From positions 26,598,001-26,662,000 of the forward strand of contig NC_043015.1 in assembly GCF_006345805.1 (NCBI RefSeq): DNA of 64,000 nt, written 5' to 3'. Positions 14,023 through 55,700 of the stretch are shown piece by piece. The notes beneath the pieces were generated by a model. It was not told the origin of the DNA and did not search any database. It worked only from the letters and a program-made list of their open reading frames with translations. Made by a program: the position numbers and the translations under genes. The stretch is from Octopus sinensis. Lineage: Eukaryota. Position 1 is the stretch's first letter. Every line of letters begins with the position of its first letter.

Positions 14023-14924
14023 ATTTAAAGATGAAATACAAAAAATATATATACATGCTCACGCTCATATATATATATGTATGTATGTATATAAACATAT
14101 ATAAATACGTACACAAACACACACACACACATATATATCTATACATACACATATACATATAGACACGGATATATTTTATAATGCAGCCCTATACTTCTAC
14201 ACATTACTTATGCATACTCGCACACACACACATACAATCACTCATTCATAAACGTATACTCTCGGCAAGACACTAACACAGAGGAGAAATAACATCCAGT
14301 AGCCGCAGATACTCAACCACATACTTATAGAAATATTCCATTCTTAGTAATATAGTATTAAATAAATACTATAAGTACTATAAAAAAAATTATGAATGGG
14401 AATAATTATCTAATATAAATTATGCTATTAAATTAAACATGGCCTAAACCATCTTTAGTCGAAACATTTAAAGATGAAATAGCTAATTTCAAAATACAAA
14501 AAATATATATACACATGCTCACGCTCATATATATATATGTATGTATGTATATAAACATATATAAATACGTAAACAAACACACACACACATATATATATAT
14601 ATCTATACATACACATATACATATAGACACGGATATATTTTATAATGCAGCCCTATACTTCTACACATTACTTATGCATACTCGCACACACACCTATACA
14701 ATCACTCAGTCACGAACGTATACACACAGCAAGACACTAACACAGAGGAGAAACAACATCCAGTAGCCGCAGATACTCAGCCACATACTTATAGAAATAT
14801 TCCATTCTTAGTAATAGAGTATTAAATAAATACTATAAGTACTATAAACAAAATTATGAATGGGGATAATTATCTAATATAAATCATGCTATTAAATTAG
14901 ACATAAACCATCTTAAGTCGAAAC
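14023..14924. repeat. Tandem duplication of about 450 bp (14023-14464 and 14465-14924) inside the Penelope 3' region
   Basis: Both units run from ATTTAAAGATGAAATA through GACACGGATATTTTT(T)ATAATGCAGCCC to AAACCATCTT.AGTCGAAAC. Confidence 0.9.
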
Positions 14925-26662: not shown

Positions 26663-26671
26663 ATAGATAGA

Positions 26672-26735
<64 letters not shown>

Positions 26736-26772
26736 GACAGAGACAGAGACAGAGACAGACAGACAGACAGAC

Positions 26773-26837
<65 letters not shown>

Positions 26838-26838
26838 T

Positions 26839-26872
<34 letters not shown>

Positions 26873-26885
26873 TAGATAGATAGAT

Positions 26886-26941
<56 letters not shown>

Positions 26942-26978
26942 TAGACAGACAGAGACAGAGACAGACAGACAGACAGAC

Positions 26979-27023
<45 letters not shown>

Positions 27024-27024
27024 T

Positions 27025-27066
<42 letters not shown>

Positions 27067-27075
27067 TAGATAGAT

Positions 27076-27134
<59 letters not shown>

Positions 27135-27135
27135 G

Positions 27136-27176
<41 letters not shown>

Positions 27177-27177
27177 T

Positions 27178-27219
<42 letters not shown>

Positions 27220-27228
27220 TAGATAGAT

Positions 27229-27287
<59 letters not shown>

Positions 27288-27316
27288 AGATAGATAGATA
27301 GATAATATAGATAGAT

Positions 27317-27385
<69 letters not shown>

Positions 27386-27455
27386 TATAATGGATGGATG
27401 GATGGATAAATGGATAGATAGATGGATGGATAGACAGACAGATAGATAGATAGAT
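26663..27455. repeat. About 790-bp compound (GATA)/(GACA)n array
   Basis: Seen directly. Confidence 0.97.
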
Positions 27456-27825
27456 ATGTTTCTTTATTAGCCACACAGGGCTGCACACAGACAGGACAAA
27501 TTACAAGTTAGAGCTTTTCTTTTGGGGGTAAAAAAAGGGGGGTTGGTTTTCGATCAAAAGGGATCGTAAAAGAAAAGAAAGAGGACAAAAAAAGGGGAGG
27601 ATAAATTTTTTTTTTAAAGGAGGGGGAAGGGAAAGGAAAAAAATTGATCAATAGGGATCGTTATCACAGAAATGTCAATATGAAGTGTAAAGGGGAGGAC
27701 AGGTGAGGTTTACCTGTAGAAAGAAAAGCCTACGGAAAAGACCACGGTAACCTCGGTCAATGACGTCACATGTTATATATTGTTTTTTTTGCAAATAAGC
27801 AACTCTCTGTATTAATTTTTACGGT

Positions 27826-30800
27826 TCATAGAATCATAGTCAAGGTGGCTTCGTCATTTATACGTGCCATCCTTGCTACACTCACCCATCTTTTTTTAAA
27901 ACATTCACTAGACAAAACTTGCCTCTCTACTCTCACTTTCCTCTTCAAGTGATACTTGAAGAAGTTGATGAGAGATTGACCAGAGAGGAAAGTGTTTGTC
28001 TCTAATCCTTTCAGGCGCGTCCACCAGATACATTCTTTCGCCATAGCCAGAAGTATGATAAAAATAGCTCTTCCTTCCCGTTTGAAGGAAGGAGGCGTGA
28101 CGATATTAACGATAGACTCGGCTGATAAACCCACACGTCCCACACGTGACAGCAGTCGATCGACATAAGCCCACAGGTCGGCGATTGCTGGACACTGCAC
28201 GATTGCGTGCAGAGCGGTTTCGTCCCTCTGCCCGCATATCGGGCAGGTCAGTCCCGTGTTTCTCGAGCCATGCCTATAGAGCTTATCCCGAACGGGTAGC
28301 GCTTCTCGGTAGCACCGCCAGGCCAGGGATCTCTGGAAGTTGTCCATAGGTCCCGGCCCGAAAGTCGTTTCAAACAGGCGGGTCAGGTATTCCTCGTCGA
28401 CGCCTAGGTTTGCCCCAAGATCGTCGTCGTACATCCCCTCCACTAATCCCCTATAGAATGCTTTGGTTGTGTTGAAGTCACTCAAGGTCGACCCGGGACG
28501 GCAGAGTTGCTTGAGAGCAACGCGACACTCGCGGTGTCATTCGCCCTTCCTCGGCCTCTTTTTGATCAACGACTGCAGTTCGGTCATGGAGACGAGCTGC
28601 GGGAACGCGTGCCTCACAAACGGCAACCACACCTGTTCACCGTCGTCTACATAGAGCCGGAGATGTCGCAGTCTAGGCGCGTGTCTGCGCCTCATCAACC
28701 ATGGCATGCCCAGCCCTCCTTTTAACGGGTGTTGACAGCAAATGGATCGCCTGACCATCGGGACGCATCCTTTCCACAAGAAGCGGAAGAGAATGCGTTC
28801 TAGTTTGGTGATGGTAGGGATGGGACAAGGTACGACGGTCAGGCAGTAGTAGATGATGGACGCGATGTACGTGTTCGCCACCTCCGCCCGACCTTTTAGG
28901 GACAGTTTCCTCTCGGCCCATTGCTGGGCGAGAGTGACCACCCTACTCGTTATCTCGTTCCAGTTCTTCTCCATTTGGAGGTCCGGACCGAACCAGACTC
29001 CGAGCAACTCAACCGGGCCCTCTGTCCAGCGTCCCACGACGGAGGCGCTGGTGGACGGCATGGGCTTGCTTCTCCAGGTGCCGAGCCGCAAGCCCACTGA
29101 CTTTTCCCGGTTGATTTTTGCTCCTGTCACCGCTTCGTAGTCTTTCAGTGTCTCGCCGACCAGCTCAATGTGCTCGTGGCTTGACACTATGACGGTGACG
29201 TCGTCCGCGTATGCAGACACGCTCGTCCCGCATCCCAATTTTCGCGGGATGCCCCTCAGAGTCACCAGCATCCGCAGTAGTGGCTCAAGAGTCAATACGT
29301 TTAGAAGCGCCGAGAGGAGGCATCCCTGACGGACCGAACGTGCAATGTCGAAAGGTCTCGATAGATGTCCATTCACGCGAATTACCGAACGGATGCCTCT
29401 GTACAAGGCAGCTATCCAGCCGCGGAAGACGGGACCGAAACCAGCCGCTCTCAGGACTGCCTCCAAGTATCGATGGTCAACCCTATCGAAGGCTTTCGAT
29501 TGATCCAAGTTGATCAGGGCCCCACCCATGCCAGGTTCCTTAACTACTCTGTCTATGATGTAGCGCATCAGATGGAGGTTGTCATGGATGCTCCAGCCCG
29601 GCACGGCGCACGTTTGTGCGTTGTCGACTAGTTTCTTGATGACAAGCGCCAACCTCTTGGCTAACACCTTTGTCAAAATTTTCAGGTCTGCATTGAGCAG
29701 AGTGATTGGTCTAAAGTTATCTATAATGTTTCTCTTGTTTGGATCTTTCTTCAGCAGCGTTACGGCTCCTCGACTCACAAAACCGGGTATGCTCCCGTTT
29801 TGCTGCCAGTTGCAGTATACCGCTGCCAAGACGTCTCCAAACAAGTCTGCCATACAATTGTAAAACTCGTAGGGCAGACCATCCAAACCCGGCGATTTGT
29901 CTCTCGAGCATTCTGCCATCGCGTCCCGCACATCCGCCGCCGTGATGGCACCTTCGCAGCACTCTGCCTCTCTTGCCGAGAGTCGTGGTAGGCTGTGCAG
30001 GAAGGCACTGAAGTCCACCCTGCGTTCACGCTCGCCAATCGTCCCGTACAATCAGGCAAAGTGCCGCTGAAATGTCTCGCACATCTTGCTGGGCTCGAGC
30101 AATTCGCGCCCTTGTTCATCTACCAGAAACCGAATGGTGGCTTTGTTGCCCTGCTGCACCTCCGCCACCCGGGCCTCTTCGCGGCTCCAACACCTTCCAT
30201 CCTTAGAGCACGCATCCTAGCCCTGACAGCACACCCTTCGTGTTTGGCGTTGAAGTGTTGGTGAAGGGCCAACCTCACCGCTAAAACGTCGGATGTGATG
30301 CTGCTTCTTATTGCCTCTTCTAACTTCTTAACTAACTCACCCTCTACTCTATTTCTATCTACGGCTAGTGCCTTGCTATATCTAATTGCTTCCGCTTTTA
30401 CTGCTCTCTTGAGGGCGAACCACCATTTGTTGTTGACAATGGCTCCCGTTAAAGCCCTTTTTACTAACGTGTTGATTCTGTCTCTGAAAACATGTCTGGA
30501 CGGGAAAGATGCGTTCAGTTTCCAGTAACCAGGACCCTGTCTATATGCCTTATCTAAGTCTAGCGTACACGTCACGAATTTGTGATCCGTGTAGCTGACT
30601 GTGTGGAATTGTGGACATCCTAAGTTATCCCTGTCTACTGTCCCACACATTATCCTATCTAGATACGATCTCGACGACCCACTGCGGTTGCTCCATGTCC
30701 ACGTTGGTGCATTTGGGTGGTCGAGTCGGTACCTGTCAGACAGTTGGAATCGTCTGAGCAGGTCTCTGAGGCATTTGCATCCCCTTCTGGTTTTTTCTCA

Positions 30801-31262
30801 CCTCACATAGTCTAGATGCGTGTCCAAGGTAGCATTCCAATCCACCACTAAAAGTAAAGGACGAGACGTTCCCAGGAATACTTCTAGACGTCGAAAGAAA
30901 TCCGGCCGACCTGTTAAAGGCGGTGCGTAGACTGATACGAGTCGAAAAGCGCACCCATTGCTGCCGTCGACATCCAGAACGACCAGTCTACCCTCCGGGT
31001 CTACGAATATCGTCTTGACTTCGAGATCCAGGCTCTTGTGAAAAAGTACCTCGGTGCCACTACCGCCCATCCTCGGCAGACAGGGAGCAAAATAAATGTT
31101 AAACTGTCCGCCAAACATGGACTTTAGGGCCCGTGGCTCGTGGAGTCTGGTCTCACTTATGGCTATGATTCCCAAATCGTGTGACTTGATGTCATTTAGG
31201 AGGTATCCTTGTTTCCAAGGAGACCCCAAGCCACGCGCATTCACACAACCAATCTTGACCAT
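27826..31262 (-). pseudogene. Tx1 ORF2: APE endonuclease, reverse transcriptase and C-terminal zinc finger (frameshifted)
   Basis: GCVNARGL, ISETRL, YTDH, YWKLN, KSPGLDGLPYEFY, FRPITLLNADLKI, LDQSKAFDRVDH, SVRQGC, SAYADD, GGLG, CPIC...HAIVQC. Confidence 0.93.
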
Positions 31263-31312
31263 GATTCTATTGGGGTGCGTGCTTTAAAACACAAAAGAGA
31301 AGGTACAGAGAG

Positions 31313-33243
31313 TTACTTACTTGTGTCGAAAGTTTTGGCTTCCTCGTCCTTTGATGTGTCTTGGAGGAGGTTTTTATAGAGTTTTTGTGAAAGGTATTTT
31401 TGAAACCCCCCAACCGCATTTGGAAAGAGGGCTTTGAGTGTGTAGTGTTGTGTTTGTGTGATGTGTAGTATTTTGATGTGTTTGGATGGTGTAGTGCGCG
31501 GATGGTAGTTATTTTTGAAGTCATCTTCACAGATGTTTGTGTGGGCTGTGATGTATTTCATTAGTTTGGAGTCTTTGGTGTCTATCGCTGATAGCATTGT
31601 GTGTTTTTTTGTGGTGTTGGTGCTTGTTTGGTTGTGTATGGAGCTTTCAGGGTTCAGGTATCTCCCTGCTTTGGTTGCGTTTTCTTGTTTGTTTTTTTTT
31701 ATCTTTTTCTTTTACCCCCGGTGGCTATTTGCCATTCTGTCGAACTTTCATCGTTAGATGAAAAGTCTGACGAATCAGCAGGGGGCAAGGGTAAAGTATT
31801 TGGGTCTGTTTATGCGGTTGTAGATATTGTTGTGGTGTGCGGGGTGGGGTTGCTGGGGGGTTTGGTGTGGTGATTGTCTCTCCTACATCCTTGGTGCTTG
31901 TCTTCTTCGTTGTTGTTCTCGGTGTTGGAATTGGTTTAGTTGTTGTTGGTGGTGATGGTTCTGTTCTTGGCGCAGGTGGTGGTGTTGTTTGGTTGGGTTG
32001 GTCCATTCTTTGTTGCTTTTCATGGTCATCCGCAAGATGTACGTGGGTGGTAATTTTGTTAATGTCGTCTTGGCTTATGTGGAAGAGAATCTCCATTCTC
32101 TTTCCCACCCAGTCCTTGTGTTTCGAAACAGTGATGTCCAGGATGTTTATGTCCTCCATTTCGACGCATATGGCGGATGTTATCCATAGTGTGGTTGTTA
32201 TTTGCGGGCCATTATTGATAATGACCTTTGTCACCTTCTGCCCAAGCTAACTGGGTGTCATTGTTAGCTCATCTGAATGAAGAGTTAGCATTGAGAATTG
32301 CTTTGCCAACTCTTCATTCTGAAAAACCGTGGGCAAACTTGTTCGACCAAGTCACATACTCTTTGTATCCCCAGATAGGCACATTTCTATTTTGCGTAGG
32401 CACTTTTCTATTTTGTCCGTGCTTGCTTTTTCTGGACTTTTAGTTGTGTTGTTTGTTATTTTATAAATAATCGTTTTCTTTTTTTCCTCATTCGGTATGT
32501 GTTGTGGTATGTGTAATTGTATTTTGCCGTTTCTTTGGTGGTTAAGGCTCTGGAGTCTTTTATCTGCTGTGCAGTAAACGATACTCTTGTTATTTTTTCT
32601 TTTATCGCCTCGGCGAAGTTTGTTGTTGTTTTGTTATTGTTGTTACTGCTGGTGGTGTTCATGTTGATGGCAGGGGTGTGGGTTGTGGGTATATTAGTTT
32701 GTGGTTGCTGATTATGCAACTAGCAAGGGGTGGAAAATTGTCTGCGTAATTTGCTCCTGCATTAGCGCAAATTTCGGCACCTCGTTTGATGGTCGCGGTT
32801 ATTTTTTTCTCTCCTTCACTTGTTGGTGATGGAGGGAACAGTGGCTGAAGGGAATTGTTGTTGTTGTTGTTGTTATTGTCGTTCTTGGTGACGGCGGTGG
32901 TATTAGTAGCAAGGGAGGCATTGACGGCGCGGTCTTTGGTGGCGGTGATGGTGATGTTGGTATTGTTATTGTTGTTGGTAGTGGTGTCGTTAGCAGAGAT
33001 AGCAGTTGTAGTAGCAGAAACTGCCATGGTGGTGGTGTCGGTGTTGATGGTGGAATCATTGGTGACGGTGACGGTGCTTGGCCTTGCGACCTTTGTTTTG
33101 TATTTGTTGCTGTTGTCGATGCTGATGGTGGTGTAAGTAGTGTTTACACAGTCAAGTTCAGCGCATGGTGACAGGGCAACCTGTTTTTTTGTTCTGGCGT
33201 CACGCTTCAGTTGTGCCTTAGCCTCGTCGTGACCAGTAGCCAT
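31313..33243 (-). pseudogene. Tx1 ORF1 (low-complexity Thr/Asn/Pro-rich, frameshifted)
   Basis: A chain of ORF fragments upstream of ORF2. The C-terminal block HPRTT..HIKI.HITQ..H.TLK.L.P.AVG.FQKYLS.KLYKNLL is conserved in copy 2. Confidence 0.7.
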
Positions 33244-33295
33244 TTTTGAAGATAAAATGGCTAAAATACAACACGAGGCCATATTTTAGCCATTT

Positions 33296-33297
<2 letters not shown>

Positions 33298-33364
<67 letters not shown>
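33298..33364. repeat. (GATA)n spacer between the two Tx1 copies
   Basis: Pure GATA run. Confidence 0.97.
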
Positions 33365-33366
<2 letters not shown>

Positions 33367-36300
33367 CTTTCTTTATTGGCCACACAGGGCTGAAATACAG
33401 AGGGGACAAATACAAATGTAGAGCTTTTCTTTTCGAAGATGGAAAAAGAAAAAGGAAACAAAAAAAGAAATGAATGTAAAATTCCGATCAAAAGGGATGT
33501 GTAACACAGAAACAAATTTTTTAACAGTAAGAAACAAGATTAAGTTCATCCGTGGGAAGAAAAGCTAGACTACGGTAACCTCGGTCAGGGAGGAAATAAA
33601 CACATGAGAGCAAAGTGCTCTCTCTCTCTCTCTCTTTTACGATTTACAGGATCATGCTCAAAGTGGTTTCGGCACTCGCACGCATCATCTTTGCTACATT
33701 CACCCACCTTTTTTTGAGACTTTCGCGAGACAAAACCTGCCTCTCCGTTCTCACCTTCCTTTTCAAGTGGTACTTGAAAAAGTTGATGAGCGCTTGGCCA
33801 GAGAAGTAAGTGTTTGTCTCTAATCCTTTCGCTCGGGGCCACCACACACATTATTTTACCATGGCCACCAGTACGATGAAAACTGCCTTGCCTTCCCGGT
33901 TGAGGGAAGGGGGCGGAGCAATTCTCACAATAGACTCAGCCCACAGGCGATAGCAGCCGTTCGGCCTAAGCCCACAGGTCTGAAATGGTTGGCCACTGCA
34001 CGAGTGCGTGCAGAACGGTTTCGTCGCTCTGACCGCATCTCCGGCAAGTCGGTCCAGTGTGTCTCGAACCGTGCTTGTAGAGCTTATCACGAACAGGTAA
34101 TGCTTCTCGATAGCACTGCCAGGCCAGGGATCTTTGGTGAATGTCAATAGGTCCCTGCTCGAAAGTCGTCCTGAACAGGCAGGTCAGATGTTCCTCGTCC
34201 ACGCCCAGATTCTGCCCGAAAATCGTCGCACCTCCCCTCCACTAATCCTCTATAGAACGCCTTTGTTGTAATGAAGTCGCACACGTTTGGTCCCGAACGA
34301 CAGAGTTGCTTGGGAGCAACGCGACACTCGCGATGCCATTGGTCTAACCTTGGTCTCTGTTTGATCCACGACTGTAGTTCGGCCAAGGAGACGAGCTGCG
34401 GGAAAGCGCGTCGCACAAAAGGCGAATACACCTGTTCACCGTCGTCTATGAAGCTCCAGAGATGTTGCAGTCTCAGCGCATGTCTGCGCATCATCAACCA
34501 CGGCATACCTAGTCCTCCATTTAGCGGGTGTTGACTGCAAATGGATCGCCTAACCATCGGAACGCTTCCCTTCCACAGGAAGCGGAAGAGTATGCGTTCC
34601 AGTTTGGTGATGGTAGGGTCGGGACAAGGCACGACGGTCAGACGGTATCGATGACGGATACGATGTACGCGTTCGGCACCTCCGCTCGACCTTTTAGGGA
34701 TAGCTTCCTCTCAGCCCATTGCTGGGTGAGAGTTATTTCACCCCAGTTCTTCTCCATTTGGAGGTCCGGACCGAACCAGACTCCGAGCAATTTAACCGGT
34801 CCGTCTGTCCAGTGTCCCACGATGGAGACGCTGTTGGACGGCATGGGATTGCTTCTCCAGGTGCCGAGCCGCAAGCCCACTGACTTTTCCCGGTTAATTT
34901 TTGCTCCCGTTACCGCTTCGTATTCTTTTAGTGTCTCTCCGACCAGGTCGATGTGCTTGTGGCTCGACACTATGACGGTGACGTTGTCCGCATATGCAGA
35001 CACGCTCCTCTCACATCCCAGCTCTCGTGGGATGCCCCTCAGCGTCGCCAGTTTCCGCAGTAGTGGCTAAAGAGTCAATACATACAGAAGCGATGAGAGG
35101 GGGCATCCTTGAAGAACCGAACGCATGATGTTAAAAGGGCTGGATAGATGACCATTTACGCGAACTACCGAGCGGATGCCGCTATATAAAGCAGCGATCT
35201 AACCGCGGAAGACGGGACCGAAACCAGCCACTTTAAGGACAGCCTCCAAGTAGTGATGATCTACTCTATCGAAAGCTTTTGATTGATCTAAATTGATCAG
35301 CGCCCCACCCATGCCAGGATCCTTAACTACCCTGTCTATGATGTACCGCATCAGATGGAGGTTGTCATGGATTCTCCTACCCGGCACGGCGCACGTTTGC
35401 GCCTTGTCGACTAAACTAGCGCCAATCTCTCGGCTAAAACCTTGGCCAAAATTTTCAAATCTGCGTTGAGCAGAGTGATGGGCCTGATATTATCTATGAC
35501 GGATCTTTTCTTAACAGTGCCACTGCTCCTCGCTTTACAAAGGCGGGGATACTCCCGTTTTGCTGCTAGTTGCAGTAGACAGCTGCCAAGGCACCTCCAA
35601 ACAAGTCTGGCATATGACAATATAGTTCGTAGGGCAGACCATCCAAGCCTGGTGACTTGTCTCTCGCGCAGCCTGCCGTCGCATCCCGTACGTCCGCGGC
35701 TGTGATGGGTTTTTCACAACACTCCGCCTCTCTTGCAGGGCATGTACGCGTTCGCCACCTCCGCCCGACCTTTTAGTAGTGGCAGGGCATGTAGGTAGGC
35801 ACTAAAGTCCACTCTGCGTTCTGACCCACCACTTGTCCCAAACAGTTGGGTAGTGTTGTTGAAAATCCTGACACATCCTTTCAGGCTCGAGTAATTCGCG
35901 CCCCTGTTCATCTGTAAGTGACCTGATGGTGGCTCTGTTACCTCGTTCCGTCTCCCCCACTCTGGCCCCTCGGGCGACTCCAACTCCTTCGTTCCTCAGA
36001 GCACGCATCCTAGCTTGAGAACGCATCCTTCGTGTTTGGCGTTGAGGTGTTGGTCGAGGGCCAACCTCGCTGCCAGTACGTTGGACGCGATGCCAGTTCT
36101 AAGTGCTTCTTCTAAATTCTTAACTAAGTCTCCCTCTATTCTATTTCGGTCTAATGCTAGGGCCTTACTGTACCTGACCGATTCTGCTTTAATTGCTTTC
36201 TTTAGAGCATACCACCATCTGTTGTTAATGATGGCACCCATCAATGCTCTCTTAACTAATGTGCTAATCGGGTCCCTGTAAGCCTGTCGTGCCGTAAAGA

Positions 36301-37837
36301 CGCGTTCAGCTTCCAGTAACCAGGACCCTGCCCATGTGTCTTATCTAAGTCAAGTGTACAAGTCACAAATTTGTGGTCTGTGTAGCTGACTATATGGAAT
36401 TGTGGACAACCTACACTATCTTTATCTACTGTCCTACAGAATACTCTATCTAAGTACGATCTGGACGACCCGATGCGATTCCTCCATAACCACATTGGCA
36501 CATTCGGGTGTTCCAGTCGGTACCTGTCAGACAGTTGGAAACGTCTGAGCAGGTCTTTAAGGCATTTGCATCCACTCCTATTACTATCTCTGCCCACGTA
36601 GTCTAGATGCGTGTCCAGGGTGGGGTTCCAATCCCCCACTAAAAGTAAAGGTCGCGACGTTCCCAGAAAAACCTCTAGTCGTCGAAAGAAATCTGGCCGG
36701 CCTGTTAAGGCCGGTGCATAAAATGTTATCAGTCGAAAGGCACACTCATTGCTGCCATCGACATCCAAAACGACCAGCCTACCCTCCGGGTCTACGAATA
36801 TTGCTCTTTCTTTGAGGTCCAGACTCTCCCGGAGGAGCACCGCGGTGCCACCTCCGCCCATTCTCGGTAGACACGGAAAAAAGTAAATGTTGAAATGTGC
36901 GCCGAACATGTGCTGGAGTGCCCGCGAGCTGTGGAGTCTGGTCTCACTGATGGCTATGATGTGCAGATTTTGTGACCTGATGTCATTTAACAGGTAGCCT
37001 TGTCTCCAAGGTGACCTGAAGCCACGTACATTTATACTGCCTACTTTGAGCATGTTCCGATCGAAAGTATGTTTTACACACGAAAGGAATATGAAAAAGA
37101 AAGAGAGAAAGAGAGAGTCACTTCCTGTTCGAAAGTTCTTTGTTCTTCACCTCACAGTCCCTTTCCAGAAGGTTTTTATACAGTTTTTTGGACAAATATT
37201 TTTGAAATCTCCCAACTGCCTCAGGGTAGAGAGATTTCAGGGTACTGTGTGTGTTCTGTGTTATGTGTATGATTTTAATGTGTTGCGGTAGAGTTGTGCG
37301 TGGGTGATTCTTTGTTTTGGTATCATTTTCGGTTATGTTGGTGTTTGACCTAATATATTCCATTAGGTCGGGGTTGTTGGTGTTTATGGCTGTCAACATT
37401 GTTGTGGGGTTTGATGATAGTGTGTTTGTGTTGATATGTTTGTTTTCTGCGGATGTTTTAGTTTCGGGAGTTGTAAACCTCTCTGCTTTGTTTGTCTGCT
37501 TCTCTATTCTTTTTTCCCCTTTTTCTCCCCCACCCCCCGGTGGCTATTTGCCAATCCTCCGTGTCATCTTCATCTAATGACATGTCAAAGGAATCAGAAG
37601 GTGGGAGGGGAAGTGTATTGGGGTCTATTTCTGACTGTGTTGACTTTGGTGTTGGTGCTGGTTGGTGACCGTTGGGGTGTGGTGTATGGGTTTTGGGAGG
37701 TGGGGTATGGGTATTTTGTGTTTGTGTGATTGTAGGTATTGTTGTGGTGCGTGGGGTGTGTGTTGTTGGGGGATTGGGAGTAGTAATTGTCACTTCTTCA
37801 TCCTCGGTGCTTGTCTTTTTGGTAGTTGTTCTTGGTG
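33365..37837 (-). mobile_element. 5'-truncated Tx1-clade LINE, copy 2 (diverged subfamily)
   Basis: APE at 37053-36256 (GSINVRGF, ISETRL, GDWN, YLDR, YTDH), RT fragments (QSKAFDRVDH, SAYADN) and a zinc finger. The 3' tail matches copy 1, and the element is truncated within ORF1 at (GATA)n. Confidence 0.92.
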
Positions 37838-37907
37838 AGATAGATAGCTAGATAGATATATCGTAGTTAGACAGACAGAGACAGACAGACAGACGGATAG
37901 TTGGATG

Positions 37908-37997
<90 letters not shown>
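37838..37997. repeat. (GATA)n array
   Basis: Seen directly. Confidence 0.95.
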
Positions 37998-37998
<1 letters not shown>

Positions 37999-38320
37999 GG
38001 AAAACAATAGGAAAACAGCTGTTCATGCAGGGATGAAAAATTGTGCCCGTTAAATGGAGCTTGCATGTCCGAGACCAACATCTACGAAGATACCGTGGAC
38101 TATATACCCACTAAAGACACAGTTTCGACGAAGAAATACGTGGGCCTTACAGAGGATAATTTCAAGGCCAGGTTCAATAATCACACCTTGAGCTTTAGGC
38201 ACTGGGACAAAAGGAAAACGACAAAATTATTCAGTCATATATGGCCATTAAAAGATAAAGGTGTCAGTTACAACATCCATAGGAAGATTTTAGCCAAATG
38301 TAAGCCCTACACCAACGACA
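37998..38320 (+). mobile_element. Penelope-like GIY-YIG fragment, probably followed by its 3' region to about 39420
   Basis: [15 protein letters not shown]...NIY...KKYVGLTEDNFKARFNNHTLSFR...TKLFSHIWPLKDKG...KILAKCKPY. Confidence 0.85.
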
Positions 38321-40052
38321 CGGCTCATCTGGAAAAGCAACTTAGACCCCGATACATGTCTGAACTCAAGGACAGAACTTTTCGGATCATGCCTACAGGT
38401 GGTCAAATTTTTGTTACGTTTTTGGTTCCCCCAAGACTACAGATGGAACTTGTTTTCTATATTGTGTCCACGCACAAGATTTTTATCTCATTATACCTAT
38501 TACTTTTACTTTATTTATATTTTTATACGTATATTTCTTACACATTACAGAGGATTTGGTTTATCGATATATTTTTTACACATAATTTTTTCTGTAATCT
38601 ACCTTCCACCCTGCATTTTTCCCTGTGCCTATATAGACGTATGTATGGAATCCTTTGTGCGCGCTGTGGATGTGTGCGTGTGTGCGGGTTTGTGTGTATA
38701 TATATGTGTGCGTGTGTGCGTGCATGCGAGTACGTGCGTATATAGACGTATTTTATTCAGTGTTTTTACACATTTTCCTGTATTTTTTAGACGTATGTAT
38801 AATCCTTTTTTGTGCGTGCGTGTGTGCGTATATAGACGTGTGCGGCTATGTGCCTATTTGGATGTGTGTGTGTGTGTGTGTGCGTGCATAAGTGTATGTG
38901 CGTATATAAACGTGGTTTACTCTTTGTATACTTTCTTTTGCCTTTTTCGGTATAGTTACCCTTAACCCTGCTTTTTCTTGTGTTTGTGCGTACGTAGACT
39001 TTTACGATAGGCGTGTGTGTGTGCGGGGGGGGGGGGTTGTATGCATATGCATATATATTTGGTGAAGGATGCGAGTGAAGATGTGTACGTTTATCTAGTG
39101 AGGGTGGATGAATGTTTGCGTACGCACGTGGATGTGCGGGCGCACATGTGTAGGTATGAACAGGCGCGCTTACGCGAATACTATGAACTTTTTACCCCCT
39201 TACCTTAATTAGTGGTCATTCCAATAGCTCTTTTGTTTTAATAGCGGTCAATAACACAATAATTTCCCTTTGAATAACGGTCATTTTTCATAGCGTTTTT
39301 CCGATGGCCGGATAACTGATGATATGGTGGCGTGGATTTCCATTAATGGTTGTATTAATTTATTGCTATGAGCATGTGGTTGTGTACTTTTTAGTATGTT
39401 AATACTTATTAGTATCTGCTTTTCTGTATGTGTGACTATTGCGGTCGGTTTCAATACAATTTGAGACAGAATATTTTGGGGGGCCCTTTGATCTTTTAAC
39501 CCTATTTAAACATAATTTCTGTTCAAACTATTTCTTGGTCCCATCTTTGTATTCTCAGCTGTTCCTTATTGCTTCTTATTGTTCCTTATTGGAGCCACGT
39601 ACATTGTGTTTTATCTTACTTTTTAAAATGTATATTAAATACTTTCAAAGTGTTTTTTTTATTTAACCCTTCAGCATTCAGATTACCTTCTTAAATGTAA
39701 TGCTTATTTATTCACGCAGTTTTGAATTAATAATGCATTGGCTCTTTGGTTCGAAATTTCAATGATGTGATAGTTTATTTTTAGAATGACTTTGTAAGGT
39801 AAATAGGAAAAACTAGATCCAGTTAGTTAGAACAGAAAACAGAATATTTTGGCTTGATATGACTGGCGTAATTTAATCATTTTACTTCCTCTCTCATCCC
39901 TTTCCAATCTTTTGGCTACATTACGGATAGTCAATTCCTAACCTTAGATCCCGCATCTTAATCGATATGATAAAAAACATATTATTCATATTTATTCTTT
40001 AATGACCATACCGCGCGAATTTTGTCTACTTTTGATATTTCATATATTGTAT

Positions 40053-52791: not shown

Positions 52792-55700
52792 GTGCTTGGA
52801 GCTAGGACAAAATCTGAAAAGCAGACTGAAAACCCTGCACCAGCAAACAAAGGAAAAACAAACACCCAGTCACCAGTCTTGCGACTGGCCACCTGGAATG
52901 TCAGTACCATGTGCCCTGGCATCATTGACGATCTACGACAGATGAACGACAGTAGGAAGACAGCAGTCATCAACACCGAATTGAAAAGGCTGAACATCGA
53001 CATAGCGGCGCTGCAAGAGACCAGGCTCGCCGCAGACGGCATGCTACGGGAGAAGGACTACACCTTCTACTGGCAGGGGAGACCCGTCGAGGAGGCCCGC
53101 CAGCATGGCGTTGGGTTTGCCGTGAGGAACAGCTTGCTCCCCATGGTGATCCCTCCTTCAAATGGCTCAGAGCGCATCCTCACTCTTAACCTTGCAACAT
53201 CAACGGGGAAGGCAAACATAATTAGTGCTTATGCCCCAACACTCCACTCTCCTCAGGAAATAAAAGACCGGTTCTATGAGGAGCTCGACGCCACCAGCAG
53301 CCAGATACCAGGGTCGGAGCCCATCTTCCTTCTGGGCGACTTCAACGCAAGGGTGGGATCCGATCATGGGGCATGGCCAGATTGCCTTGGACGCTTTGGC
53401 GTGGGGAAGGTGAATGAGAATGGCCAGAGACTGTTGGAGCTTTGCTCTTACCGGAAACTCTGCGTTTCCAACACATTCTTCATGACTAAGCCGCATCACC
53501 AGGTCTCATGGAGGCACCCAAGGTCCGGACACTGGCACCAACTGGACATGGTCATCACCCGGCGAACCCACCTCGGCAGTGTGCTTCTCACACGCAGCTA
53601 CCATGGTGCTGACTGTGATACAGACCACTCTTTGGTGTGCAGCAGGGTCCGATTGGCCCCAAAGAAAATCAACCGTCCCGTAGGGAAAAGCCGCCCACGC
53701 ATCAACACCGCCAGGACAACCAACCCCGACCTCAGCTCGGAATTCACCAACCGCATGGAGGAGGCCCTTAAAGATCACGCAGCCACGTCCATTGAGGAGA
53801 GATGGCAGATTATTCGCGACACCACTTGCAGAATAGCCATGTCATCCCTAGGAAAGAGGGAGCGGAGAAATCAAGACTGGTTTGAAGCTCACCTGCCTGA
53901 GATGGAGCCTGTCATTGCTGCCAAGAGGGAAGCACTGGTCAACTATAAGCGCGACCCATCAGAAAAGAACCTGGCTACTCTGAGAACAGCCAGAAGCGAC
54001 GCCCAGAGGACGGCCAGACGTTGCGCCAACGTCTACTGGCAGAACTTATGCCAGAACATCCAGTGCTGTGCTGACAGTGGTAACGTGAAAGGGATGTACG
54101 AGGGGATGAAGAAAGCATTCGGGCCCACTGTCAGAAAGGTTGCTCCACTGAAGTCCAGAGATGGCGAGGTCATCGAGGACCAAGCGAAGCAGATGGAGAG
54201 GTGGGTCGAGCATTACCAGAACCTCTACTCCACTGAGAATGTGGTCACCAGGTCTGCCCTCGCCGGCATTCCTGCTCTGCCTGTCATGGAGGAGCTTGAC
54301 CTGCCTCCAACAAAGGAAGAACTGAGCAAAGCAATTGACTCACTCGCTCGGGGCAAGGCACCAGGGCAAGACGGCATCCCCGCAGAAGTCATCCAGTGCG
54401 GGAAGCCAGCCCTTTTGGGCCATCTCCACGAGCTGCTCTGTCAGTGCTGGGAGGAGGGCTCTGTCCCTAAGGATATGCGTGACGCAAACATCATCACACT
54501 GTATAAAAACAAAGGGGACAGAAGCGACTGCAATAATTACAGGGGCATATCACTGCTCAGCACTGTCGGTAAGGCATTTGCCAGGGTGGTCCTGAAGAGG
54601 TTGCAAATACTTGCAGAGCGTGTGTACCACGAGTCTCAGTCTGGCTTTAGGGCAGAGAGGTCTACAATTGACATGATCTTCTCACTCAGGCAGCTTCAAG
54701 AAAACAGTCGAGAACAGAGACAGCCCCAATACGTGGCCTTCATCGACCTGGCTAAGGCGTTCGACTCAGTCAGCAGGGAGGGGCTGTTTACGCTCCTGGG
54801 TAGGATAGGTTGCCCTCCCAGACTGCTGAAACTCATCACCTCCTTTCACGACGGTATGCAGGGAACAGTGCAGTTTGACGGATCGCCCTCGGAGTCATTC
54901 CCCATCCAGAATGGAGTGAAACAGGGTTGCGTTCTGGCGCCGACGCTCTTCGGAATTTTCTTCTCCCTTGTCCTGTCCTATGCCTTCAGAACGTCCGACG
55001 ACGGAGTGTTCCTCCACACCAGGGCTGATGGTGGATTGTTCAATCTTGCGCGCCTCAGAGCTAAGACCAAAGTCCGTCAGGTGCTGATCAGAGAGATCCT
55101 CTTTGCTGACGATGCCGCCCTAACATCACACAACCAACCGGGTCTCCAGAGGCTGGTCAGCTCCCTGGCGGATGCCTGCCAAGAGTTCGGCCTTACCATC
55201 AGCCTGAAAAAGACAGAGATCATGGGCCAGGACGTCGGAGGGGTCCCCAGCATCAGTGTCGGCGACCACAGCTTGCAGGTGGTGAACGAGTTCACTTACC
55301 TGGGATCGACGGCCTCCAGCAGCCTGTCCCTCGAGCCGGAGCTGAACAGGCGGATTGGGAAGGCTGCTGCTGCCATGGCTAAGCTCTCCAGGAGAGTGTG
55401 GGAAAACAACATGCTCACAATAACCACCAAGATCGCAGTGTACCGAGCCTGCGTGCTGAGCACCCTACTCTACGGCAGCGAGAGCTGGACAACATACACT
55501 CGGCGGCTTCCACATGCGGTGTCTTCGACGGATCCTTGGCATCTCCTGGAAGGACCGAGTACCAAACGGAGTCATCCTGGAACAGACTAATATGCCAAGC
55601 ATGTATGCCCTCCTCGTGCGGAGACGACTGCGCTGGCTCGGACACGTCTGTCGTATGCAGGACGGTCGCATGCCTAAAGACATCCTGTACAGCGAACTCA

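Follow-up and report, generated by a model that had tools for sequence, protein, structure and literature searches.

The window examined here, 64,000 nt of the Octopus sinensis genome (NC_043015.1, positions 26,598,001 to 26,662,000), contains two long interspersed nuclear elements (LINEs), copies A and B, which lie in tandem between tetranucleotide repeats of the GATA/TATC type. A and B are dead copies of two sister LINE families of the L1/Tx1 type. Members of these families sit in (TATC)n at both ends and in one orientation, likely because the endonuclease of their second open reading frame (ORF2) cuts repeats already present in the genome, on the GATA strand. Established family-wide were the repeat flanks and their strand, the terminus of the element (GAAAC-A/T or GAAAGT) and target-site duplications of 11-18 bp starting with TAT. 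The two sister families form a real GATA-microsatellite-targeting LINE lineage, which represents a new target for a known habit and not a new kind of system. The features of the locus are given in window coordinates; all are on the minus strand.

26663-27456: microsatellite of the (TATC)n/(TGTC)n type adjoining the 3' end of A, the likely target; degenerate, 197.8 units with 91% matches in Tandem Repeats Finder (TRF).
27457-33296: copy A, a dead LINE of the main family (CA end), 5,840 bp long after loss of about 177 nt from its 5' end; from comparison with other copies.
27457-27825: 3' untranslated region of A, T-rich, with terminus AATAAAGAAACA and without poly(A); from the sequence and a conserved 25-mer with 7,385 genomic matches.
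27826-31262: ORF2 of A (APE endonuclease, reverse transcriptase (RT) and C-terminal zinc-binding motif); from Pfam and tblastn.
31313-33243: ORF1 of A, broken by frameshifts; from comparison with intact natural copies, which have one CCHC knuckle.
33282-33296: at the 5' junction of A, 15 nt that repeat 33254-33268 in inverted form and are unique to this copy; exact inverted match.
33297-33365: perfect (TATC)17 separating the two copies, which flanks B on its 3' side and A on its 5' side; from TRF and the sequence.
33366-37837: copy B, a dead LINE of 4,472 bp from the sister family (GT end), truncated inside ORF1; from comparison with relatives.
37053-33644: ORF2 of B, with several frameshifts and stops; from comparison with the intact copy.
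37838-37998: (TATC)n, degenerate next to B and perfect further on, adjoining the 5' end of B, the likely target; TRF, 41 units at 86%.

A preliminary description of the locus had placed all four junctions against GATA repeats. This was confirmed for the tracts at 26663-27456 (198 units, degenerate), 33297-33365 (17 perfect units) and 37838-37998, the weakest junction being the right-hand one at the 5' end of B, where two perfect units are followed by variants and the perfect run occupies 37908-37995. The shared minus-strand orientation and the lack of poly(A) in both copies were likewise borne out. The description also had the elements ending on (ATCT)n; the direct abutment held and the exact end did not, as the termini are AATAAAGAAACA in A and AATAAAGAAAGT in B, two bases beyond GAAA, and the adjoining repeat opens with TATC. 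The APE, RT and zinc-binding domains were detected by Pfam in both copies, broken in each; ORF2 of A carries one frameshift near 30177 and three stops, and is 92-93% identical in amino acids to a natural intact copy (tblastn). A and B were 76.9% identical over 4,113 aligned columns. Since they belong to sister families (80% identity in ORF2), they are independent insertions, as had been proposed from their divergence. Their 5' ends differ, as stated there, and both are truncations. The break of B lies inside ORF1. The 5' 297 bp of A retrieved 29 other copies, most of which extend further upstream, to a head beginning GGACAGAC; by this comparison A lacks about 177 nt. The 15-nt fold-back at the 5' end of A was ruled out as a family feature: its 19-mer occurs once in the genome, and the other copies continue differently.

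The 3' flanks were tabulated genome-wide with an internal 25-mer probe of the 3' end that contains no flank letters and has 7,385 matches in the 2.72-Gb genome. The exact 3' end ran on into TATCTATC / NNTATCTATC in 5,291 of these (72%), whereas the opposite-strand repeat stood within 6 nt in four matches at three places. Most copies are therefore flanked in the GATA phase, and the predominance of non-GATA flanks that the preliminary description had named as the contrary outcome was not found. In 91 copies the bases following the element were T in 89, A in 88, T in 88, C in 79 and T in 85. The sister family of B showed TATC at 22 of 29 3' flanks and at 15 of 26 resolved 5' flanks. The transition from the 3' end to ATCT repeats was also seen in contigs of four independent public runs (107, 101, 56 and 54 contigs). 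Rare copies carry the GATA strand on one side, namely L271 (5') and L298 (3', after a TA run).

For the 5' side, the first 92 of 100 places listed on contig C1 were taken, one beside an N gap was dropped, and the 5' ends of the remaining 91 copies were mapped against natural copies. Truncation was found in 86, with a median length of 496 bp. At least two TATC units stood within 40 nt of the truncated 5' junction in 63 of the 86 (73%) and at least three in 58, compared with 489 (0.6%) and 236, respectively, of 79,680 random positions in 200 kb. The GATA strand was seen at none of the 91 5' junctions, in agreement with the earlier proposal that one strand of GATA microsatellites is used. The motif did not follow the abundance of repeats: random sequence of 200 kb held, on both strands, 11,788 bases of AT, 2,236 of AC and 800 of TATC, whereas the repeats standing at the 86 truncated junctions were TATC in 56, AT, AC and TC in one each, and TTC, TTTC or TTCC in none.

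The search for exact duplications with non-repeat letters gave 10 among 122 copies, where mismatched pairs would predict 0.26, and 3 among 40 further off-target copies, where 0.03 would be predicted; those counted in the latter set had been selected for a TAT start. Two candidates, L136 with a 51-nt repeat match and L075 with a pure TA case, were set aside as uninformative. Twelve duplications of 11-18 bp all started directly after the last base of the element, opening with TATC in eight, TATA in three and TATT in one, and 12 of 13 informative duplications showed no added repeat units. In five of the twelve (L073, L145, L157, L206 and L210) the element sat at the end of a tract with further TATC upstream of the 5' duplicate. 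As this lies beyond the reach of target-primed reverse transcription (TPRT), the repeat is older than the insertion in these five copies. In a test for an empty site at L206, no public contig spanned the site, the two records that cross its 3' junction having fewer than 31 letters on the element side.

We infer that the APE domain is the site selector. In the LINEs TRAS1, SART1, R1Bm and Tx1L the endonuclease (EN) domain sets the insertion site and a beta-hairpin has a role, according to the available text of PMC1919474. The corresponding hairpin reads SNRSGSSR in the family of A and RNRIGSSR in B. A first nick would fall at 5'-GATA^GATA-3' in a pre-existing repeat. The 3' end released there would serve as primer, and copying would start at the last base of the RNA, which would have no poly(A) and usually no repeat tail. 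The duplication would come from a second nick at a distance of 11-18 bp, and most copies are truncated at the 5' end (median length 496 bp). Because both flanks remain targets after insertion, copies could stack head to tail; of the two copies here, A is likely the later arrival, having entered the repeat behind B.

Full-length copies differ at their 5' end. Of 40 full-length heads, 39 are preceded by TATC, and 20 have a TCTCT variant in common immediately ahead of the head. In two of three informative full-length copies the gap separating duplicate and head was occupied by TATC, 17 nt of it in L145 and about 19 nt in L101. Full-length RNA thus probably initiates within the repeat, between a few and about 20 nt ahead of the head, and its TATC leader may help to join the 5' end. 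For this reason the independent 5' evidence for targeting comes from the truncated copies and not from the full-length ones. A subfamily (L066, L101 and L192) has another head, with ATGGACGGACG replacing GGACAGACAGACG, and the same target.

Several observations weigh against targeting of existing repeats by the endonuclease. Among the 86 truncated copies, 13 scored TATC at the 3' side only and 10 on neither side, and tracts on the 3' side had a median of 54 nt against 28 nt on the 5' side, a tendency with p = 0.065. Four extra TATC units lie between element and duplicate in L200. Among 30 copies whose 3' flank is not a repeat, only 10 had an exact duplication of at least 10 bp and 20 had none, and in the off-target set only the 3 of 40 had one; the missing duplications may be due to age or target deletion. 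The TAT common to the junctions could equally reflect pairing between primer and RNA.

The last point belongs to an alternative that we regard as unlikely, though it is the strongest of the rivals, in which the site is picked by RNA-DNA pairing. The transcript would read into the flanking repeat and carry UAUC at one or both ends, the endonuclease would be loose, and only paired primers would be extended. An AATAAA lying only 6 nt from the element end, the near-fixed T, A, T, C, T that follows it, the extra TATC before the heads of L145 and L101 with the TCTCT variant, and the units added in L200 are all consistent with such a transcript. However, at sites without TATC directly upstream, seven of eight duplications had no added unit, which counts against pairing because pairing in random register on a multi-unit tail would often add units. 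Moreover, four duplications open with TATA or TATT and not TATC, and truncated copies, which have no 5' leader, nevertheless have tracts on both sides.

A second alternative treats the repeat as an encoded or slippage-made tail, as in LINEs of the L2 or I type, with the 5' repeats being older tails or later expansions. The longer 3' tracts and the extra units of L200 fit such a tail. Closer inspection of the 13 copies scored at the 3' side only revealed a tract 44-102 nt beyond the last library match in four, one unit or a variant in another four and no TATC on the 5' side in five (5/86), which are those a tail would explain. Unlike in repeat-tailed LINEs, though, 63 of 86 truncated copies have 5' tracts and no units were added in 12 of 13 duplications; a tract on the 5' side only also occurred in 5 of 86. 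The 5' tracts speak equally against the case, raised in the preliminary description, of GATA at 3' ends only. Only 5 of the 63 upstream tracts stood behind the 3' end of another copy by the script rule (six by eye), and 4,138 of at least 72,599 starts of perfect (TATC)5 runs follow the family end (about 6%), about 94% not lying behind the family; the upstream tracts are therefore mostly not old tails. As a general rule the tail reading is contradicted, and we regard it as very improbable. Within C1:75078-4016146, 79 of the first 100 (TATC)5 run starts listed were on the plus strand, compared with balanced genome-wide counts (36,153 versus 36,446); this is a regional bias near the contig end, with partly clustered hits.

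Random insertion with mere survival, or misassembly, in microsatellites has a negligible probability: the genome is very microsatellite-rich and long tracts are hard to assemble, but the strand and motif controls refute it. A single motif is used, on one strand and in one register; the duplications are clean and include unique sequence, and the same junction appears in the four public runs.

A more far-reaching proposal is an undescribed LINE lineage which combines a GATA-cutting endonuclease with a short copy of the landing site in the 5' end of its RNA, the latter joining the head to the next site so that each insertion leaves two renewed landing pads. We put this forward tentatively, as possible and rather doubtful. 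If true, the elements of TC, TTC, TTTC, TTCC and GATA would form a natural one-base series showing how a LINE endonuclease sets its target.

The classification rests on ORF2 and ORF1 of natural intact copies. ORF2 of L146 (P0002) is unbroken, with 1,145 amino acids from the first Met and the motifs NARG, SETR, VYAP, GDWN, YLDR, TDH and YADD, and it retains APE motifs that align with human L1 EN. Pfam gave PF03372, PF00078 and PF13966, that is the layout of the APE-type L1 superfamily with an N-terminal APE domain, RT and a C-terminal cysteine motif. The best match among solved structures was human L1 ORF2p (E 5e-54, versus 7e-20 for R2). The marks of TPRT were present, namely 12 duplications of 11-18 bp, 5' truncation in 86 of 91 copies and a fixed 3' end. 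Elements of the Tx1 clade have a Gag-like ORF1 with RNA-binding domains and a CCHC knuckle. In the octopus family ORF1 is unbroken in L137 and L138 (P0003 and P0004), each with one CCHC knuckle at Pfam E 0.011, below the cut-off. Its atlas look-alikes (0.90-0.92) were CCHC clusters, one of them with ZCCHC3 RNA-binding domains, which we take as a lead; a direct BLASTP comparison with one fish ORF1 gave a weak match. The named Tx1 elements Tx1L, Keno, Kibi and Koshi were not among the matches of the homologue, representative and cluster searches. In a quick RT tree of 63 of 66 chosen rows (three dropped for short overlap), which held no named Tx1 reference, P0002 fell in a long-branched clade of nine rows, eight of them unnamed (SH-aLRT 99), apart from the fish rows with ZCCHC3-type ORF1. 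Membership of the Tx1 clade is probable.

The centre of ORF1 is highly variable despite the same head and a near-identical ORF2: the part of A at 32000-33243 is 66% identical in amino acids to P0004 (L138) and 40% to P0003 (L137), which suggests ORF1 swapping or fast change among subfamilies.

Human L1 ORF2p (PDB 8sxt and 1vyb) shares with the octopus family the APE and RT layout, the aligned catalytic motifs, TPRT with short duplications, 5' truncation and an occasional 5' inversion, seen in two of 91 octopus copies. These inversions, in L075 and L210 (1.1 and 2.4 kb), resemble L1 twin priming, and duplications or repeat flanks are still present in both. In contrast to human L1, the octopus family has no poly(A), a CCHC knuckle in ORF1, a defined tetranucleotide target and SNRSGSSR in place of FSAPHHTY in the EN hairpin. 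Dong is a member of the R4 clade. Together with Waldo and Mino, which are R1 elements by a cited title, it is likewise reported to target microsatellites, but the targets (ACAY for Waldo, AC for Mino, TAA for Dong) and the clades are others (PMC3812793, available text).

In behaviour the closest systems are Kibi, which targets (TC)n, Koshi, which targets (TTC)n, and the crocodilian elements Tx1-1/5/6_Crp, Tx1-1_Gav and Tx1-2/3/5/8_AMi, which target (TTCC)n or (TTTC)n, as given in the available text of PMC4494074 and PMC3812793. These are, like the octopus family, APE-type LINEs with two ORFs that prefer a short pyrimidine-rich microsatellite. The octopus family differs in its TATC unit, its likely mollusc host and its thousands of copies, and TC, TTC, TTCC and TTTC together accounted for a single one (TC) of the 86 5' flanks. 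The working threshold for a target preference in PMC4494074 is more than 20% of flanks, which is far exceeded by the 72% of 3' ends and 73% of truncated 5' ends. With a different target and a descent from that group that would be conjectural, the family is not filed under Kibi and Koshi; the likeness is one of behaviour.

Neither GATA nor ATCT occurs in the main text of PMC4494074, its supplementary target list aside. L1-Tx1 elements are reported to be abundant in coleoids, and 13 recently active families with 421 insertions are described for O. vulgaris (PMC13282606 and PMC8967140); the word "target" is absent from the main text of the former and "microsatellite" from that of the latter. The published literature searched contained no LINE targeting GATA, TATC or AGAT, and a prior Repbase entry may exist. 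A TATC/GATA run of five units was found in none of 80 loci of relatives on metagenome contigs with flanks, all of them distant (best segments 24-41% identical to the first row, a relative) and hence uninformative.

Copy A was 95.5% identical to its nearest full-length copy, L163, and 95.0% to the intact ORF2 of L146. Copy B was 80% identical to ORF2 of L146, its best relatives reaching 88% over the 3' 335 bp, and belongs to the sister family with the GT end. The head pattern GGACAGAC occurred 103 times in the genome, with the 3' end 5.5-6.7 kb away for 33 of 40 fetched heads. The family appears to have been recently active, since numerous full-length copies of ORF2 show 97-99% identity with that of L146. 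It is present in public runs under four organism labels, none of them listed as RNA. In contigs from four runs that we guessed to be RNA, the element passed into TATC or other flanks and no poly(A) was seen among the rows listed, RNA ends not being visible in such contigs.

Few LINEs that target microsatellites are on record, and the lineage extends them by the GATA/TATC target and probably by a new group of hosts. How such elements work is described as not well understood in the available text of a review (PMC3812793). With a natural intact ORF2 (L146) and the nick register from the duplications in hand, the choice between enzyme and RNA is directly testable. GATA microsatellite markers in this genome may be interrupted by the element, given the share of five-unit runs behind its 3' end. 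For inserting transgenes in many copies, a LINE that targets repeats is also of interest.

Elsewhere in the window, a weak GIY-YIG match (E 0.009) at 38011-38400 on the plus strand directly follows the right-hand GATA tract and has one 76% relative in the random locus L181; this fragment is probably a Penelope-like element. A second, distant RT fragment at 54148-55473 on the plus strand is 23% identical in amino acids to the family ORF2 and belongs to another LINE clade. At 14034-14904, TRF found a 464-bp unit repeated 1.9 times at 94%, a local tandem duplication. Outside the octopus, the P0031 cluster contains a limpet relative of 30% identity. Some twelve nearly identical copies of it carry successive locus tags on a single chromosome, pointing to a tandem array formed by a different site-specific family.

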